From the NCBI GenBank assembly GCA_014382605.1, contig JACNJM010000159.1, positions 1 to 50,747 of the forward strand: a DNA stretch of 50,747 bases. Reading direction: 5' to 3'. Position numbers and translations under genes: made by a program. Each line of letters begins with the position of its first letter. Within the stretch, counting starts at the first letter, position 1. Positions 2,901-50,747 of the stretch are shown here, piece by piece. A model generated the notes under the pieces. That model did not search any database and had not been told where the DNA came from. It saw only the letters and a list, made by a program, of their open reading frames with translations. This stretch comes from Anaerolineae bacterium (GTDB lineage Bacteria > Chloroflexota > Anaerolineae > Anaerolineales > UBA11858).

Positions 2901-3674
2901 TCAGGCGCGTTGGCGGGCGACTTCAAAGAGCAGGATCGCCCCGGCAATGGCGGCATTGAGCGATTCGGCGCGGCCCAGCATGGGGATGTGTACCGGCTGC
3001 GGATTCACCGCCCAGGCCTGATCGCTGGCCCCGTGCGCCTCGCCTCCCAATATCAACCCCAGTGGACGCTCAAACGCGGCCCCGGTATAGGGCTGCCCCT
3101 CCGTGGAGTCGGCTAGAAACAAGATGAGGCCTGACGAAGCGGCGCGTTTTTGGACATCTTCCCAGGATACGGTTTCAATTGGCAGATGAAAATGTGCGCC
3201 CATTGCCGCGCGTAATACTTTTGGCGAGTAAGCGTCCACAACCCCCGGATGCAGCCACACGGCATCGGTTCCGGCAGCCAACGCTGTGCGCAGCAAGGTT
3301 CCCATATTCCCAGGGTCGCGCACGCCATCCAGAATCAAAATAAAATCAGCATCGATGGGGGCAGGCAGAGATTTCATCGACAAAACGGCTAAAATGCCCT
3401 GTGGAGACTGTGTATCACTGGCGTGCTGCATAACTCCAGGGCTAACCGGAATTATTTCCACGCCGCGCTGCTGATAGGCGGTGATGATATCATCGCCGCG
3501 CTCATCTAATCCGGGAGTATAGAGCACAAATTGGGTATGCCAATCTGCTGCTACTGCCTCTTCCACGAGGCGCACACCTTCGATAACAAAAGCTCCTGCT
3601 TCACGACGGCTGCGCGCACGCGCTTGTAAGGCTCGAATTAATTTGATTTTGGGGTTCGTGGTTGAAGTGAGCAT
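2901..3674 (-). CDS. TrmH/SpoU-family RNA 2'-O-methyltransferase (RlmB-like)
   Basis: 257 aa. SpoU motifs 'DPGNMGTLLRTA' and 'IPMLGRAESLNAAIAGAILLFE' are present. Confidence 0.85.
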   Translation of the reverse strand: MLTSTTNPKIKLIRALQARARSRREAGAFVIEGVRLVEEAVAADWHTQFVLYTPGLDERGDDIITAYQQRGVEIIPVSPGVMQHASDTQSPQGILAVLSMKSLPAPIDADFILILDGVRDPGNMGTLLRTALAAGTDAVWLHPGVVDAYSPKVLRAAMGAHFHLPIETVSWEDVQKRAASSGLILFLADSTEGQPYTGAAFERPLGLILGGEAHGASDQAWAVNPQPVHIPMLGRAESLNAAIAGAILLFEVARQRA

Positions 3675-10881: not shown

Positions 10882-10951
10882 TTAACGCGAATAAGCGAAT
10901 GTTTATTCAACAACATTCGCGCTTTTCGTCCATTCGTGTCATTCGCGTTTA
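10882..10951. repeat. Family R variant (GCGAATR units), asymmetric arms
   Basis: TTAACGCGAATAAGCGAATG-loop-CATTCGCG...ATTCGCGTTTA. The outer 9 bp and inner 7 bp are complementary. Confidence 0.5.
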
Positions 10952-13430: not shown

Positions 13431-13506
13431 TGAACCGCAAAGACGCAAAGGTCGCTAAGGTTTTCTATTTTTCTCGGCGTTCTTCGCGTCTTTGCGGTGA
13501 AATTTC
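13431..13506. repeat. Family R full copy
   Basis: TGAACCGCAAAGACGCAAAG...loop...CTTCGCGTCTTTGCGGTGAAATTTC. There is a 13-bp perfect stem (13434-13446 with 13486-13498). Confidence 0.7.
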
Positions 13507-13522
13507 TGACAGGTGTAAGACG

Positions 13523-14935: not shown

Positions 14936-15011
14936 TACCACAAAGACACGAAGGCACGAAGAAAAACATAAAAAATCCTTTGTGTCTTTGTGCCTTTGCG
15001 GTGAAATTTTT
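14936..15011. repeat. Family R full copy
   Basis: ACCACAAAGACACGAAGGCACGAAG-AAAAACATAAAAAATC-CTTTGTGTCTTTGTGCCTTTGCGGTGAAATTTT. Confidence 0.7.
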
Positions 15012-18561: not shown

Positions 18562-18585
18562 TTACGCCTTCGCAATCAAGATTTC
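18562..18585. repeat. Family R half copy abutting the 18586 palindrome
   Basis: TTACGCCTTCGCAATCAAGATTTC; compare CGCCTTCGCGATGAAATTC at 44946-44964. Confidence 0.35.
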
Positions 18586-18638
18586 GCAAAAAAGGGTGTG
18601 CATGGGGTGCGTCGCACCCCATGCACACCCTTTTTTGC
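18586..18638. terminator. Perfect 26-bp-arm palindrome with A6/T6 flanks (bidirectional-terminator-like) between divergent pcrA and holB
   Basis: GCAAAAAAGGGTGTGCATGGGGTGCG-T-CGCACCCCATGCACACCCTTTTTTGC. Confidence 0.4.
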
Positions 18639-18667
18639 GATTTTCCCTTTCGAGAAAACTATCGAAA

Positions 18668-20435: not shown

Positions 20436-20489
20436 AAAAACTCAAAGGTGTGCCGCGATAAAATGCTCGCGGCACACCTTTGAGTTTTT
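20436..20489 (+). terminator. Intrinsic terminator after the lipoprotein gene
   Basis: AAAAACTCAAAGGTGTGCCGCGA-8 nt-TCGCGGCACACCTTTGAGTTTTT. Confidence 0.75.
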
Positions 20490-29283: not shown

Positions 29284-29340
29284 CGAAAAAAATAAGGGTG
29301 GCTGAGGGGCAAAGCCCCTTAGCCACCCTTATTTTTTTCG
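29284..29340 (+). terminator. Intrinsic terminator after the second histidine kinase
   Basis: CGAAAAAAATAAGGGTGGCTGAGGGGC-AAA-GCCCCTTAGCCACCCTTATTTTTTTCG. Confidence 0.8.
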
Positions 29341-37435: not shown

Positions 37436-37466
37436 TCTTTGTGTCTTCGTGCCTTTGTGGTTAAAC
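37436..37466. repeat. Family R half copy overlapping the add stop codon
   Basis: CTTTGTGTCTTCGTGCCTTTGTGGTTAAAC. Confidence 0.45.
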
Positions 37467-40007: not shown

Positions 40008-40043
40008 GGTTTCACCACGAAGGCACAAAGAGCGCAAAGTGCC
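40008..40043. repeat. Family R half copy (left-arm type)
   Basis: GGTTTCACCACGAAGGCACAAAGAGCGCAAAGTGCC. Confidence 0.45.
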
Positions 40044-40046
40044 TGA

Positions 40047-41339
40047 TCAGGGAGTAGCGCTTGGCGGCGGAACCGTCGTCAGGGTTGGGGGTGGAATAGT
40101 CGTCAACGTTGGCGGCGGGGCTGTGGTTAGCGTTGGCGGTGGAACCGTCGTCAGCGTTGGGGGTGGCACTGTGGTCAGCGTCGGCGGCGGAACCGTCGTC
40201 AGGGTTGGCGGCGGGACGGTCGTCAATGTTGGTGGGGGCACAGTGGTCAGGGTTGGGGCTACTGTTGTTGCAGTCGGCATACCGGATACTGTCGCCGATG
40301 GCCCTGGCAGAGGAGTCAGTGTGACCGTATTCGTCAATGTAATCGAAGGTATCAGAGTCATGGTCTGTGTGGGCGGCGAACAGATATTCGCTACATGCGT
40401 CAATGTCAGCGGTAACTCTTCATCAGCGCCGCCAAATTGCAACGCCAATTCGTACTGTTTCTGGGCTTCGCACCAGCGTCGCTCGGCGGCTAGTTCTGCG
40501 CCATAGTGCAACAGCGACATGCGGTAACGCCACCCGGCGCTGGAGCCGGTTCCATCGCGCAAACCGGGCACAGAGGCGGCGACCTGCCCAAAATAATAAA
40601 CCGCTTGTTCTGGATACGCTTGCCAAAACCCCAAACCGGTTAAATATAATCTGGCCCAGCCGCGGTACACTGTGGCCTGATAATCTAATGGGCCAATTTT
40701 TTCTGCCAGCGAAAGATCATAAAGCCCCCCCTCCAGGTCGCCGAGTTGTAAAATGCGCTGCTCGCCGCGATTGCGCAGCGCAGCAAAAAGGCTGTCATCC
40801 ACTTCAACAACGCGATAGGTCAGATCTTCGTTGCGCAGGGCAATCAATGCCGCTACGGCGCCATCCCAGTCGCCAGCCGCCAGCAGGGATTGGGCGCGCT
40901 GGAAGATGGATTCAACCCCGCTGGGGTCGCGCGTGGGTGTGAGGGTGATCGTAGGGCTTGGCGCCAGCGTAGGCGGGAATTGCGTAAGTGTGGGGGTTGC
41001 GGTGGTATTCAAAATTTGCAATATTTCGCTGAGATACTCCCAGGCATCTGGATAATCTTCGGGGGCAAAGGCCACCACATATTCCAAACGCTGACGCGCC
41101 GATTCATAACTTCCGGCCTGGTAATCTTCCAACCCTAATTGATATTGCTCGTCAATTACCTCCGCATTCGGCGCAATGACCTCGTTGGCGGCCAATACCG
41201 CCCCGTGCTGATACCCCGCCCAAGCGCCAATAAAACCGATCAATATCAGCAAAACAAGCGCCAACCCTGCCAGCAGAATCTTGTTCGCGGCAGATTTTGG
41301 CGCTTGTCGGGATGTCTTACGTGTTGAGGGAGTGGACAT
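40047..41339 (-). CDS. Membrane-anchored TPR-like protein with C-terminal (PTLTTVPP)x8 repeat tail
   Basis: N-terminal TM 'ILLAGLALVLLILIGFIGAWAG', a helical-repeat middle region, and eight tandem 8-aa repeats at the extreme C-terminus. Confidence 0.6.
   Translation of the reverse strand: MSTPSTRKTSRQAPKSAANKILLAGLALVLLILIGFIGAWAGYQHGAVLAANEVIAPNAEVIDEQYQLGLEDYQAGSYESARQRLEYVVAFAPEDYPDAWEYLSEILQILNTTATPTLTQFPPTLAPSPTITLTPTRDPSGVESIFQRAQSLLAAGDWDGAVAALIALRNEDLTYRVVEVDDSLFAALRNRGEQRILQLGDLEGGLYDLSLAEKIGPLDYQATVYRGWARLYLTGLGFWQAYPEQAVYYFGQVAASVPGLRDGTGSSAGWRYRMSLLHYGAELAAERRWCEAQKQYELALQFGGADEELPLTLTHVANICSPPTQTMTLIPSITLTNTVTLTPLPGPSATVSGMPTATTVAPTLTTVPPPTLTTVPPPTLTTVPPPTLTTVPPPTLTTVPPPTLTTAPPPTLTTIPPPTLTTVPPPSATP
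40063..40254 (-). repeat. Eight tandem 24-bp coding repeats (TLTTVPPP units)
   Basis: Units start at 40063, 40087, 40111, 40135, 40159, 40183, 40207 and 40231. Units 1 and 6 are identical; the others differ mostly at synonymous positions. Confidence 0.9.
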
Positions 41340-42229: not shown

Positions 42230-42272
42230 CAAAAAAAGGGAGTGTGCTGCGAGCAGCACACTCCCTTTTTTT
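42230..42272. terminator. Bidirectional intrinsic terminator between the convergent ytxH-like and peptidase genes
   Basis: A7-GGGAGTGTGCTGC-gag-GCAGCACACTCCC-T8. Confidence 0.8.
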
Positions 42273-44422: not shown

Positions 44423-46063
44423 TTATTCTTCCCGCAGTAACGCCAACGCATACTCATTCTGATAAATAATTCTGTAACCGGGCAATTCATCGGCATAGGC
44501 ATCACCATAGAATCTTTGCCAGGCGCGCATCTGATCGGGATCAACTGCGGTTTCAATCGCATCAGGTTGGGTGAACTCTAACACATAATTCATTTCCAGC
44601 AACAAAATATCGGGTTGTTTCTCATGGATATAGTCATAAGTTGCCAGCTTCCATTTCATCAGCACATCGTAGTTGGGTTTGGGCGGCACGTAGGCGGTCA
44701 GATCACGGTAGATCGCCAAAGGCTCATCGGCAAGCCCCATCTCGGTTAACCGCGCTTCCACTTCGTGGTAGAAAGCAATACTCTCAGACCGCTCTTCACG
44801 GTAAAGAATATCCGTATAAATTTTGGCATCCTGTTGGAGATACAACCCATATTGGATCACTAATAAAAATAAGAGGATAAATACAAAATCGCGAAGACAC
44901 GAAGAACGTAAAGATTTTTTATTTTGTTTTTCTTCGCGTGCTTCGCGCCTTCGCGATGAAATTCTTTCAGGGAAGAGATGCACCAGCCCCGAAGCAAGCG
45001 GGATTGCCATCGGCAAGAAGTATAGCGGGCGCACGGTTGAGCCGCCCACCGCCAAGAAGTAGGGTAGCGAAAAGGCCAGAATCATCACGTTTGTGAAGCG
45101 GAAGCGCGGTGTGCGCATCCCCTGGATCAGCCCGGCCAGCATCAGCAGCAGCGTAAACCACTGCCCGTAATACGGCCAGATGATGCGTTGTATTTTTTCC
45201 TTTGTGAGATTCCAGTCAGCGTATTGCGTGTAATATCCGGCGCGCGTCTGAAAAATAAGTTGCTGCTGCCGGGCTAGAATTTCTGCCCGGGTTTGAGGAA
45301 TAAGCAGCAACGGATTCGAGATCACCAACCCCAACGCCATCACCGCCACAAAGGAGAAGGCCACCCACAGAGCGCGGCGAAGTTCCAGTTTTTGATCTTT
45401 CAACCCCCAAAGAATATATAGCGGAACCGCCAGTGCAAAAAATGCCCCGGCAAATTTAACGCTCACACCTGCGCCGCACAGAGCCGCAGCAATATAAAAA
45501 TTCCGCCCGAAGCGGAACTCGTCTTTTTGCAGCATATAGAAGATGAGTGTGATCAGCAAAATCGACAGGCTATCGGGATGCCACCAGAGATTATTCAACA
45601 CCGTCGCGGGCAACGCCAACAGAAACGCAAACAGCCCCAGAATTTTCGCAGTGGATTTGCGTTCTGTTTGCAAATCTACCATCAGGGCCACGGAGAAAAT
45701 CACCGGCAGCACGCTGACCAACTGGCGCAACAGCAGCATAATGGTAGCTGAATCTTGCCCCCAGGCTGCCCCTACGAAAAGGCGATAGGGCAGCAGCATG
45801 ATCGCCGAGAACAGATAGAAAGGGTAGCCGTAATCGTAATGTAAATACACCACAAAACGGCGAATCGTCTCAAAAATTGTATCGCCCGGCGTGAGCATCC
45901 GCAAAACATGCTGGTATTGGGCAAACTCATCCTTCTCGAAAATGGAAAGCATATTCCAATCCTGAGCGCCGGTAAAATTGGGGAAGATCATCAGCGAGAA
46001 ATAAATCAGGCCGATGACGAGCATCCCCCAGATGGCAGAACGTGAGAATGTATTTGATTTCAT
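44423..46063 (-). CDS. GT-C fold membrane glycosyltransferase with C-terminal soluble domain; carries an in-frame palindromic-repeat insertion
   Basis: Multi-TM N-terminal 365 aa with the loop 'EKDEFAQY'. Then a repeat-encoded basic loop, one TM, and a soluble domain of about 150 aa. Confidence 0.6.
   Translation of the reverse strand: MKSNTFSRSAIWGMLVIGLIYFSLMIFPNFTGAQDWNMLSIFEKDEFAQYQHVLRMLTPGDTIFETIRRFVVYLHYDYGYPFYLFSAIMLLPYRLFVGAAWGQDSATIMLLLRQLVSVLPVIFSVALMVDLQTERKSTAKILGLFAFLLALPATVLNNLWWHPDSLSILLITLIFYMLQKDEFRFGRNFYIAAALCGAGVSVKFAGAFFALAVPLYILWGLKDQKLELRRALWVAFSFVAVMALGLVISNPLLLIPQTRAEILARQQQLIFQTRAGYYTQYADWNLTKEKIQRIIWPYYGQWFTLLLMLAGLIQGMRTPRFRFTNVMILAFSLPYFLAVGGSTVRPLYFLPMAIPLASGLVHLFPERISSRRREAREEKQNKKSLRSSCLRDFVFILLFLLVIQYGLYLQQDAKIYTDILYREERSESIAFYHEVEARLTEMGLADEPLAIYRDLTAYVPPKPNYDVLMKWKLATYDYIHEKQPDILLLEMNYVLEFTQPDAIETAVDPDQMRAWQRFYGDAYADELPGYRIIYQNEYALALLREE
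44886..44965. repeat. Family R full copy located in-frame inside the GT-C ORF
   Basis: AAATCGCGAAGACACGAAGAACGTAAAG-loop-TCTTCGCGTGCTTCGCGCCTTCGCGATGAAATTC. Confidence 0.7.
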
Positions 46064-48671: not shown

Positions 48672-48755
48672 AAATTAACGCAAGAACGCAAAGAAACAAA
48701 GGCGCAGAGATTTTTATGCTTTTCTTTGCGTCTTTGCGTCTTTGCGTTAAATTTC
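48672..48755. repeat. Family R full copy
   Basis: AAATTAACGCAAGAACGCAAAGAAACAAAGGCGCAGAG-loop-TCTTTGCGTCTTTGCGTCTTTGCGTTAAATTTC. Confidence 0.7.
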
Positions 48756-49962: not shown

Positions 49963-50747
49963 TTATCGCAATTGTTGGTAAAGTCGCAAAAGGCGGGCTG
50001 ACACTGTGCTCCAGTCGTAGTCTTGTTCGTAAGCACGGCGGGCGTTGGCAGCGAATTCGGCGTACAAAACCTTATCGAGTTGCAAACATTCCAACGCTTT
50101 AACAAGCTCCGGTCGGTGCCCGTATTCAACAACCAGGCCGCAATTTTCAGCCTGCACAATGCGGTCAATATTCGTATCTGCGGCGACGATGACCGGTTTG
50201 CCCAGCATCATGGCTTCAAAGAGTTTGTTAGGGCTGGCATAACGATGATTGGGAATCGCCGGGTCGTAGAGTGCCAGAACGACATCCGCCGCGGCGGTGA
50301 GGGCTAAAGCACGCTTATACGGGATACGCCCATGCCAGGTGACGTTGGGAAGTTCATCAGACAACGCCAATATTTGATTTTCATCGCCGCCAAACCCGGC
50401 CAGGTCGAGATGCCATTCGGGATGATCGCCAAGCACATTGAGTACATTTAGCAAACCGCGCTCGGTTTGTAAAAGTCCAACATAAACAAGATTTAGTGTT
50501 TTTTTAGCAGAAAAATCACCGCGAATAGGCGAAGAACGCCAAGTTTTTCTCTTTTGTTCTTCCTGGCGCTCTTTGCGTCTTCGCAGTTTCAAAAATTTCA
50601 TTTGAGTTTGGCTTGTTCGAGTTAGCGTATTGTAGTCGTAATCTCTCGGTGTATTCAATACCACAGCTCGATTCTGCGGCAAACGCTCCCCAACCTGCAC
50701 CCAGCGGGATTCGTCGGTAATGATGAGCGCATCTACGCGGCGAATGG
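49963..50747 (-). CDS. Glycosyltransferase family 4, 5'-partial (open to the window edge); carries an in-frame palindromic-repeat insertion in the interdomain linker
   Basis: C-terminal GT-B domain with 'SPNKLFEAMMLGKPVIVAAD'. The frame stays open upstream of the track start through 50747 ('...IRRVDALIITDESRWVQVG'). Confidence 0.8.
   Translation of the reverse strand, partial: IRRVDALIITDESRWVQVGERLPQNRAVVLNTPRDYDYNTLTRTSQTQMKFLKLRRRKERQEEQKRKTWRSSPIRGDFSAKKTLNLVYVGLLQTERGLLNVLNVLGDHPEWHLDLAGFGGDENQILALSDELPNVTWHGRIPYKRALALTAAADVVLALYDPAIPNHRYASPNKLFEAMMLGKPVIVAADTNIDRIVQAENCGLVVEYGHRPELVKALECLQLDKVLYAEFAANARRAYEQDYDWSTVSARLLRLYQQLR
50513..50599. repeat. Family R full copy located in-frame inside the partial GT4 ORF
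   Basis: AAATCACCGCGAATAGGCGAAGAACGCCAAG-loop-TTCTTCCTGGCGCTCTTTGCGTCTTCGCAGTTTCAAAAATTTC. Confidence 0.65.

Follow-up and report, generated by a model that had tools for sequence, protein, structure and literature searches.

A GT4 glycosyltransferase gene in an uncultured member of the Anaerolineales is read in frame through a complete hairpin repeat. The gene lies at the end of a 50,747-nt contig (JACNJM010000159.1 of assembly GCA_014382605.1; phylum Chloroflexota), the whole of which is called the window below, and the repeat belongs to a family of short palindromic elements that we designate family R. The first-pass annotation of this DNA had proposed that the open reading frame (ORF) runs through the repeat; the partial gene is on the minus strand, which corrects that annotation. 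The gene and the parts of the element are as follows.

49963..50747, continuing past the window end, minus strand: 3' part (260 codons and stop) of a GT4 / GT-B glycosyltransferase gene (translation, Pfam, identical NCBI protein, AlphaFold model).
50513..50599, minus strand: family-R hairpin, translated in frame; residues ~198-227 of the host protein P0001, inside a 50-residue linker (~183-232).
50562..50587, minus strand: sense 5' arm of the hairpin, CUGCGAAGACGCAAAGAGCGCCAGG, encoding LRRRKERQE (RNAfold pairing mapped to the window).
50544..50561, minus strand: hairpin loop of 18 nt, A-rich in sense, AAGAACAAAAGAGAAAAA, encoding EQKRK (RNAfold pairing).
50518..50543, minus strand: sense 3' arm of the hairpin, CUUGGCGUUCUUCGCCUAUUCGCGGU, followed by GAUUUUUCU and encoding WRSSPIRG (RNAfold pairing mapped to the window).

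Translation of the partial ORF (49963..>50747, minus strand) is free of stops and includes ...VVLNTPRDYDYNTLTRTSQTQMKFLKLRRRKERQEEQKRKTWRSSPIRGDFSAKKTLNLVYVGLLQ...; the peptide encoded by 50513-50599 itself is KFLKLRRRKERQEEQKRKTWRSSPIRGD. The full gene, obtained beyond the window, encodes P0001, a protein of 409 residues with an identical NCBI entry annotated as GT4 in an Anaerolineales metagenome-assembled genome (MAG). The C-terminal part of the partial ORF matches the Pfam families Glycos_transf_1, Glyco_trans_1_4 and Glyco_trans_1_2, and Pfam and a structural model together place the host in the GT-B class, with two Rossmann-like domains, the N domain being of the Glyco_trans_4 type and the C domain of the Glycos_transf_1 type. 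The same protein is encoded at locus L001 of a second, independent assembly (GCA_016776485.1), a locus that matches the window at 99.6% identity over 5.2 kb; this excludes an assembly artefact as the origin of the element at 50513-50599.

As sense RNA, the element folds into a hairpin of 22 pairs with a free energy of -34.1 kcal/mol (z = -4.15), and none of 200 shuffled sequences folded equally well. It shares the architecture of family R, whose members are 60-85-nt hairpins with arms of tandem 8-nt units (CRCRAAGR) and ends of the form (T)TCACC/GGTGA(A). The window contains the two-unit arm motif CRCRAAGRCRCRAAG 13 times, shuffled sequence not once. A mismatch-tolerant search for arm pairs, preferred because arms with differing numbers of units are not reliably described by one consensus structure, returned six full hairpins against 0.05 in shuffles, among them the two intragenic copies, bounded in this search at 44882-44955 and 50520-50585, and a weak one at 10886-10938; two half copies are also present, and all full copies in the window fold with z between -4 and -8. 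Over 65 nt the GT4 element matches the copy at 44890-44954 with 77% identity, and its complementarity to the arm at 13473-13508 is 83%. The proposal that the GT4 ORF reads in frame through a full family-R element is therefore upheld by the hairpin statistics, the family membership and the stop-free translation.

Comparison with homologues likewise agrees with the first-pass view of the segment as an insertion rather than an ordinary conserved linker. Among 26 aligned GT4 sequences, the linker between the motifs NTP.D and L.LVYVGLLQ has 50 residues in P0001, 32 above the modal length of 18; of the 20 homologues that fall outside the long-linker clade, 15 have 17-18 residues. A neighbor-joining tree computed with the linker removed unites the long-linker sequences (P0001-P0005 and P0016, 26-53 residues) in one clade, whose sister group has 18 residues throughout. 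Since long linkers are confined to this clade, one old insertion in its ancestor is most parsimonious; judged from these alignments, the insertion is probably common to the six GT4 orthologues and hence not recent. The segment could instead be without meaning: an ordinary variable linker whose likeness to the repeat is accidental, a pseudogene, or a product of faulty assembly. Linker length does vary in a few unrelated homologues (P0018, P0022 and P0023), and the window comes from a metagenome-derived genome. However, chance is excluded by the motif statistics, the reading frame is unbroken and its two domains and conserved motifs align with those of homologues, the same protein recurs in the independent assembly, and syntenic orthologues of the gene carry the linker feature; we find such an explanation scarcely credible.

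The position of the insert in the protein was examined with an AlphaFold2 model of P0001 built on the 26-sequence alignment. The model adopts the GT-B fold (mean predicted local distance difference test score, pLDDT, 87.8; predicted template modelling score, pTM, 0.83), and the closest structures are MshA, sucrose-phosphate synthase, BshA, PimA and WaaG, with TM scores of 0.64-0.74. The last strand of the N domain spans residues 174-177 and the first strand of the C domain residues 234-240. Between these strands the model has a long helix (partly helical, residues 187-218) and then coil; in successive ten-residue blocks from 181 to 230 the mean pLDDT is 66, 51, 77, 59 and 47, and it falls below 50 in segments 187-196 and 218-227. 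The modelling of the fold, which the first-pass annotation had recommended, thus returned a low-confidence surface segment between two domains, and the insert (residues ~198-227) is predicted to be an appended, poorly determined surface segment of the GT-B hinge.

[quoted passage not shown] The element is a tolerated passenger like the Rickettsia palindromic elements (RPEs), and not a new protein module. A family-R copy would have landed in, or been converted into, the hinge in the ancestor of the six-orthologue clade. Its survival there would be due to a length that preserved the frame, to a stop-free frame encoding a charged and hydrophilic peptide, and to a hinge that accommodates additional residues. 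Arm length would have been altered by slippage of 8-nt units.

The remaining family-R copies of the window, with one diverged relative, are listed below.

44882..44965, minus strand: hairpin read in frame in the variable inter-helix loop of a 546-residue membrane protein (ORF 44423..46063) (folding, arm-pair search).
48679..48746, minus strand: intergenic hairpin, 33 nt past the stop codon of the adjacent GT4 gene; after it, in sense, come UUAAUUUUUUAU, GGAG and ATG.
13436..13496, no strand assigned: intergenic hairpin (motif, folding, arm-pair search).
14939..15000, no strand assigned: intergenic hairpin with three-unit arms (folding, arm-pair search).
37437..37459, no strand assigned: half copy (one arm) abutting the stop of an adenosine deaminase gene.
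40016..40030, no strand assigned: half copy (one arm), intergenic.
10886..10938, no strand assigned: weak, diverged family-R-like hairpin, intergenic, with 3 mismatches per arm.

The intergenic copies all lie 0-80 nt past the stop of a co-directional gene. Among them, the copy at 48679-48746 recurs at the corresponding intergenic site in L001, L002, L123, L125 and L127, and is thus inherited at orthologous sites. Between the window and L001, a strain 99.6% identical, it differs by exactly 16 nt, or two 8-nt units, in one arm, L001 being the longer; because of this difference we infer that family-R arms change length by slippage of 8-nt units. When the orthologous sites were compared (L001:7781-7921, L002:4283-4416 and L125:12384-12538), this hairpin with its flanks showed 95% identity between L001 or L002 and L125, against 80-81% for the adjacent gene and 54-56% at third codon positions. 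The hairpin may be a terminator or attenuator ahead of the next gene.

Relative to its arms, the copy at 44882-44965 uses the same reading frame as the GT4 copy (CGA AGR CGC ... TCT TCG ... CGC G.T TTT), giving SRRREAREEKQNKKSLRSSCLRDF, and the peptides of the two copies are alike: RRR(K/E)..EE.Q.K+..RSS..R.DF. The first-pass annotation had described the two copies as sharing frame and orientation and had taken both hosts to be envelope glycosyltransferases. The shared frame was confirmed; the shared orientation concerns loop polarity alone, the element being a near-perfect palindrome. Similarly, the GT4 identity of the first host holds, whereas the 546-residue host has no significant Pfam match, and only weak matches of some of its homologues to PMT, PMT_2 or GT87 hint that it could be a GT-C-like membrane protein. 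The loop that carries the element is hypervariable in all homologues (~6 to 35 residues), with the element adding ~5-10 residues net; in the close relative L002 the corresponding place reads ENSRGATENTKSSSVALMEKLRILRVSVV.

Just past the 3' end of the window, in the same organism, a GT39/PMT-family membrane gene (L001:1600-3780) contains three hairpin-derived in-frame segments.

L001:2095-2165: family-R hairpin in frame at residue ~167, YHQDTETRRNTFKIFLCSFVAKP.
L001:2710-2792: family-R hairpin in frame at residue ~372, TAETRRAQSFFAIPSRTLRLCGS.
L001 ~3230-3300: hairpin of another family in frame at residue ~545, PQINTDKKICVHLRSLVPFRVS; peptide ...ICVHLRSLVPFRVS.

In a comparison with 22 homologues, each of these segments is absent or shorter outside the near clade. 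Both family-R copies in this gene have a T-rich loop in sense, a polarity opposite to that of the two intragenic copies in the window, and one of the two is read in a different 3'-arm frame; the peptides are hydrophobic or Cys-rich, e.g., SFFAIPSRTLRLCGS and KIFLCSFVA. In the two kinds of membrane protein, the 546-residue and the GT39/PMT proteins, the inserts appear from the sequences to fall between hydrophobic stretches. All four family-R copies in the GT4, 546-residue and GT39/PMT genes are free of stops, and the domains that flank them are conserved. Within 56.5 kb, in-frame copies make up four of the eight full family-R hairpins, and one copy of another hairpin family is also in frame.

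This second hairpin family has units like GATGAACGCAGAT / ATCTGCGTTCATC and peptides such as ICVHLRS and RVDLRSS. It occurs at L001 ~3230-3300, L010:7900-7990 and L127:12340-12420 and in the GT4 linkers of L002 and L128, and its units stand beside or in place of family-R arms. A small palindrome, ACCCTT(A/T)AGGGT, is nested within some elements.

For the two similar peptides, the first-pass annotation had offered either a selection filter or recurrent domestication. A filter through which only tolerated in-frame copies survive fits the data. The alternative is that the basic peptide is a domesticated module, for instance an amphipathic or basic membrane-binding segment of envelope glycosyltransferases, which was recruited independently in at least two genes. 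Two genes do encode similar peptides, the peptide is strongly basic and is modelled as partly helical (residues 187-218), and the in-frame copies seen are all in envelope polysaccharide genes. The statistics of frame and orientation, which rest on four independent intragenic family-R sites and 75 hairpins from all loci, give these likenesses little weight as a sign of a module. The three frames are open in 57%, 52% and 37% of the 75 hairpins, the least open one including a frame closed by the TGA of the terminal GGTGA motif. From the stop-codon filter alone, the chance that a second surviving copy has the same frame is ~0.4, or ~0.2 if loop polarity is included, and three of four independent intragenic sites in the same frame correspond to P ~0.17. 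The GT4 and 546-residue peptides are probably alike because the same palindromic DNA is read in the same frame.

Among 1.84 billion representative proteins, a profile built from the translated element detected no protein family: three sequences matched at E <= 0.001, none of them a domain protein (a probable translation of a CRISPR array, a translation of a tandem hairpin, and a 42-residue fragment). The orthologous inserts vary in length, in sequence and in their pattern of charges, and they evolve more rapidly than the sequence on either side, with identities of 0.42-0.61 over the longer insert, with indels, against 0.70-0.88 for the flanks. The insert is, moreover, modelled with low confidence, and the GT39/PMT copies of the same genome have the opposite loop polarity, with one in another frame. 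With an unconserved insert, no protein family, discordant GT39/PMT copies and a weak stop-codon filter, the domesticated module was rejected as very improbable, and the tolerated passenger is preferred.

The DNA of the GT4 orthologues bears on how the passenger has been maintained. All six long-linker orthologues hold, at the same site, recognisable or decayed hairpins of this kind, which differ in length and sequence. The linker of L129 has a near-perfect stem of ~21-23 bp (AACCACGAAGGGCACGAAG...CTTCGTGCCCTTCGTGGTT, z = -6.7), and hairpins are also found in L128 (z = -3.5) and L002 (z = -3.0); in L123 and L125 the hairpin is largely decayed (z = -1.0 and +0.5), and the short linker of the outgroup L127 contains none. 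An ACAATAC.CT segment is common to the window and L002.

Several observations weigh against the tolerated insertion as we have described it. Stems that are long and near-perfect are kept in several orthologues despite differing arm sequences and near-saturated synonymous sites, which would not be predicted if a single ancient copy had simply decayed neutrally; their persistence calls for correction of one arm by the other, substitution by other copies, or selection acting on the hairpin. The alignment of the orthologous linker DNA is ambiguous between a single insertion and re-insertion into an older copy. No transposase, target-site duplication or within-species empty site was found (Pfam on part of the window ORFs; flanks of the two copies at 50513-50599 and 44882-44965, where inspection revealed no direct duplication), and the insertion event itself is therefore inferred. 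All four intragenic family-R copies (compared at window 44884-44964 and 50511-50592 and at L001:2095-2165 and 2710-2792) fold 6-8.5 kcal/mol better as sense than as antisense RNA, by way of G.U pairs, and the intergenic copies have no consistent bias of this type. Finally, the intergenic copy at 48679-48746 is apparently constrained, a hint of a role at the level of the nucleic acid beyond that of a passenger.

The persistent stems, the folding bias and the constrained copy leave room for a different explanation, in which the insertion is real but is maintained and not merely tolerated: the hairpin would be kept in the coding sequence for a role in RNA or DNA, with the peptide as a by-product. 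Possible roles include a translation-masked intrinsic terminator or attenuator, a site of mRNA stability or processing, and a pause site at a domain boundary. Such a role is favored by stems that persist in four of six orthologous linkers with arms that are different but mutually complementary, by the sense bias of the intragenic copies, by the 95% identity of 48679-48746 and its flanks, and by the recurrence of the architecture across phyla (see below). U-rich tracts also follow the hairpins in sense, i.e., GAUUUUUCU at the GT4 copy, AUUUUGUAUUU at 44889 and UUAAUUUUUUAU at 48679-48746. On the other hand, the hairpin has decayed in the linkers of L123 and L125 and, at the site in the 546-residue protein, in L002, L123 and L127; the length of the element and its position within the linker vary; and a strand bias with n = 4 has a one-sided probability of ~0.06. 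A simple terminator scan found no enrichment (26 against 19 +/- 4.4 in shuffles); its limit to loops of 3-8 nt misses these hairpins, and at the GT4 element it flagged only the distal fragment, at the 3' arm (50518-50543), as terminator-like. We consider a maintained RNA or DNA function of the intragenic copies unlikely and retain the tolerated insertion.

The octamer-armed architecture extends well beyond the Anaerolineales. A three-unit arm pattern searched over 596 Gb of genome contigs occurred in at least 120 stretches, against ~4 expected by chance (an estimate from the information content of the pattern). The matches listed, which do not include the present genome, come from Acidobacteriota, Chloroflexota, Planctomycetota, Verrucomicrobiota, Bacteroidota, Cyanobacteria, Proteobacteria (Sphingomonadales, Sorangium, Geomonas and Thioalkalivibrio) and others, and many of them are full hairpins with octamer arms on both sides. 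Examples, from loci L003-L122, are L007:1261-1404, L017:4059-4223, L023:4982-5085, L025:2717-2789 and L030:6413-6435. For 153 arms at 119 loci among these matches, the five bases outside the arm are T (58%), Y (82%), T (65%), C (56%) and A (54%), a preference that was not imposed by the pattern. No Rfam family reached its gathering score in the window or in 15 loci, and none of 11 arm 15-mers is present in the searchable literature.

Among the matches listed, elements in other phyla are almost always intergenic. Long ORFs contain 16 of 193 arms or hairpins, and nearly all of these ORFs are apparently spurious ones in G+C-rich DNA. The sole credible in-frame case among them is truB in a Sphingomonadales MAG (L086:1079-2149; TruB_N, E = 2.5e-47), which reads an octamer-arm repeat in frame as LCVFASLRETEKDLFAQRRKDAKD, pyrimidine-rich arm first. 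Compared with the mostly intergenic elements elsewhere, this Anaerolineales gene cluster is unusual in its concentration of in-frame copies. It is conceivable that family R is one lineage of an apparently undescribed class that spans many phyla and is selectively maintained as a functional nucleic-acid element, its arms built of CRCRAAGR octamers in tandem with T(Y)TCA...TGA(R)A as caps; it could be, for example, a protein-recognised module or a terminator/attenuator module. The copies within these envelope-glycosylation genes would then be kept for the action of an mRNA hairpin at domain or loop boundaries, for instance as a translation-masked terminator, and not just for want of harm by the peptide. 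We regard this broader proposal as improbable.

The tolerated insertion has precedents. In-frame palindromic repeats in intact genes are established for the Rickettsia RPEs (Ogata et al. 2000, via PMC10969869 and PMC3733652), and intragenic REP dimers encoding 20-30 residues have been reported in several bacteria (PMC3733652). Like RPEs (PMC10969869, PMC3733652), family R is a dispersed palindrome that occurs both between genes and in frame within intact genes, adds tens of residues at fold-compatible positions, and affects several unrelated genes per genome, some with more than one copy. It differs in host (Chloroflexota/Anaerolineales versus Rickettsiales), in length (60-85 nt versus ~100-150 nt), in having arms of tandem 8-nt units, with no relationship to RPE sequences seen from the published descriptions of RPE-1 to RPE-10, and in its unconserved peptide, RPE families being described as encoding conserved peptides. 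In-frame insertion in intact genes and a fold-compatible position are thus common to both, and family R does not belong to RPE-1 to RPE-10 as judged by their published descriptions.

Similarity to REPs and REPINs (PMC3733652, PMC3116915) lies in high-copy hairpin repeats that are mostly just downstream of genes between co-directional ORFs, in G.T pairs that suggest transcription, in occasional in-frame copies of 20-30 residues, and in vertical persistence at orthologous sites with no target-site duplication. Family R is accordingly a short, imperfect, multi-copy extragenic palindrome near gene 3' ends, but it lacks the terminal GTAG or CGTC tag, its outer ends being TCACC/GGTGA, and its stems have 22-28 bp of octamer units in place of the 6-13 bp of REPs. 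GCGTC occurs within the units; an identity with CGTC-tagged REPs was rejected, since the published families carry a terminal tag and form stems of 8-9 bp with loops of 4-5 nt. A scan of part of the window's ORFs revealed no RAYT gene. MITEs known for in-frame fusions (ERIC, BOX and Anabaena MITEs; PMC10969869) are likewise small, non-autonomous inverted-repeat elements able to make translational fusions. Unlike a MITE, which has terminal inverted repeats and a target-site duplication, family R consists of two arms and a short loop with no distinct internal sequence, so that the whole element is an inverted repeat, and neither a target-site duplication nor, in the DNA examined, a parent IS was found. 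The case thus works like RPEs and intragenic REPs, in a new phylum and with a new element family, and is not a member of either by sequence.

In-frame survival of selfish or structural hairpin repeats is documented mainly in Rickettsia and a few REP-rich proteobacteria. Here, in uncultured Anaerolineales, three adjacent envelope-glycosylation genes carry five element-derived loops that persist across the whole clade. They amount to a natural experiment on protein positions that tolerate ~10-30 extra residues, namely, a GT-B hinge and inter-helix loops of GT-C-like enzymes. They are also a practical warning, since segments of this kind lengthen linkers, lead homology modelling astray and make unrelated proteins look spuriously similar. 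The repeat itself is possibly the more valuable lead, with its occurrence in many phyla, no Rfam or literature match, and one intergenic copy more conserved than the neighbouring gene.

Two other kinds of repeat were observed in the window. ORF 40047..41339 (minus strand) contains, at 40061-40300, a tandem array of seven or more 24-nt units like TTGGCGGCGGAACCGTCGTCAGGG, which would give an 8-residue repeat in a host protein with a weak TPR match. Four long perfect or near-perfect palindromes, with arms of 19-28 bp and loops of 1-8 nt and flanked by A and T runs, are located at 18584-18640, 20436-20489, 29284-29340 and 42231-42272; they look like bidirectional intrinsic terminators and are unrelated to family R.

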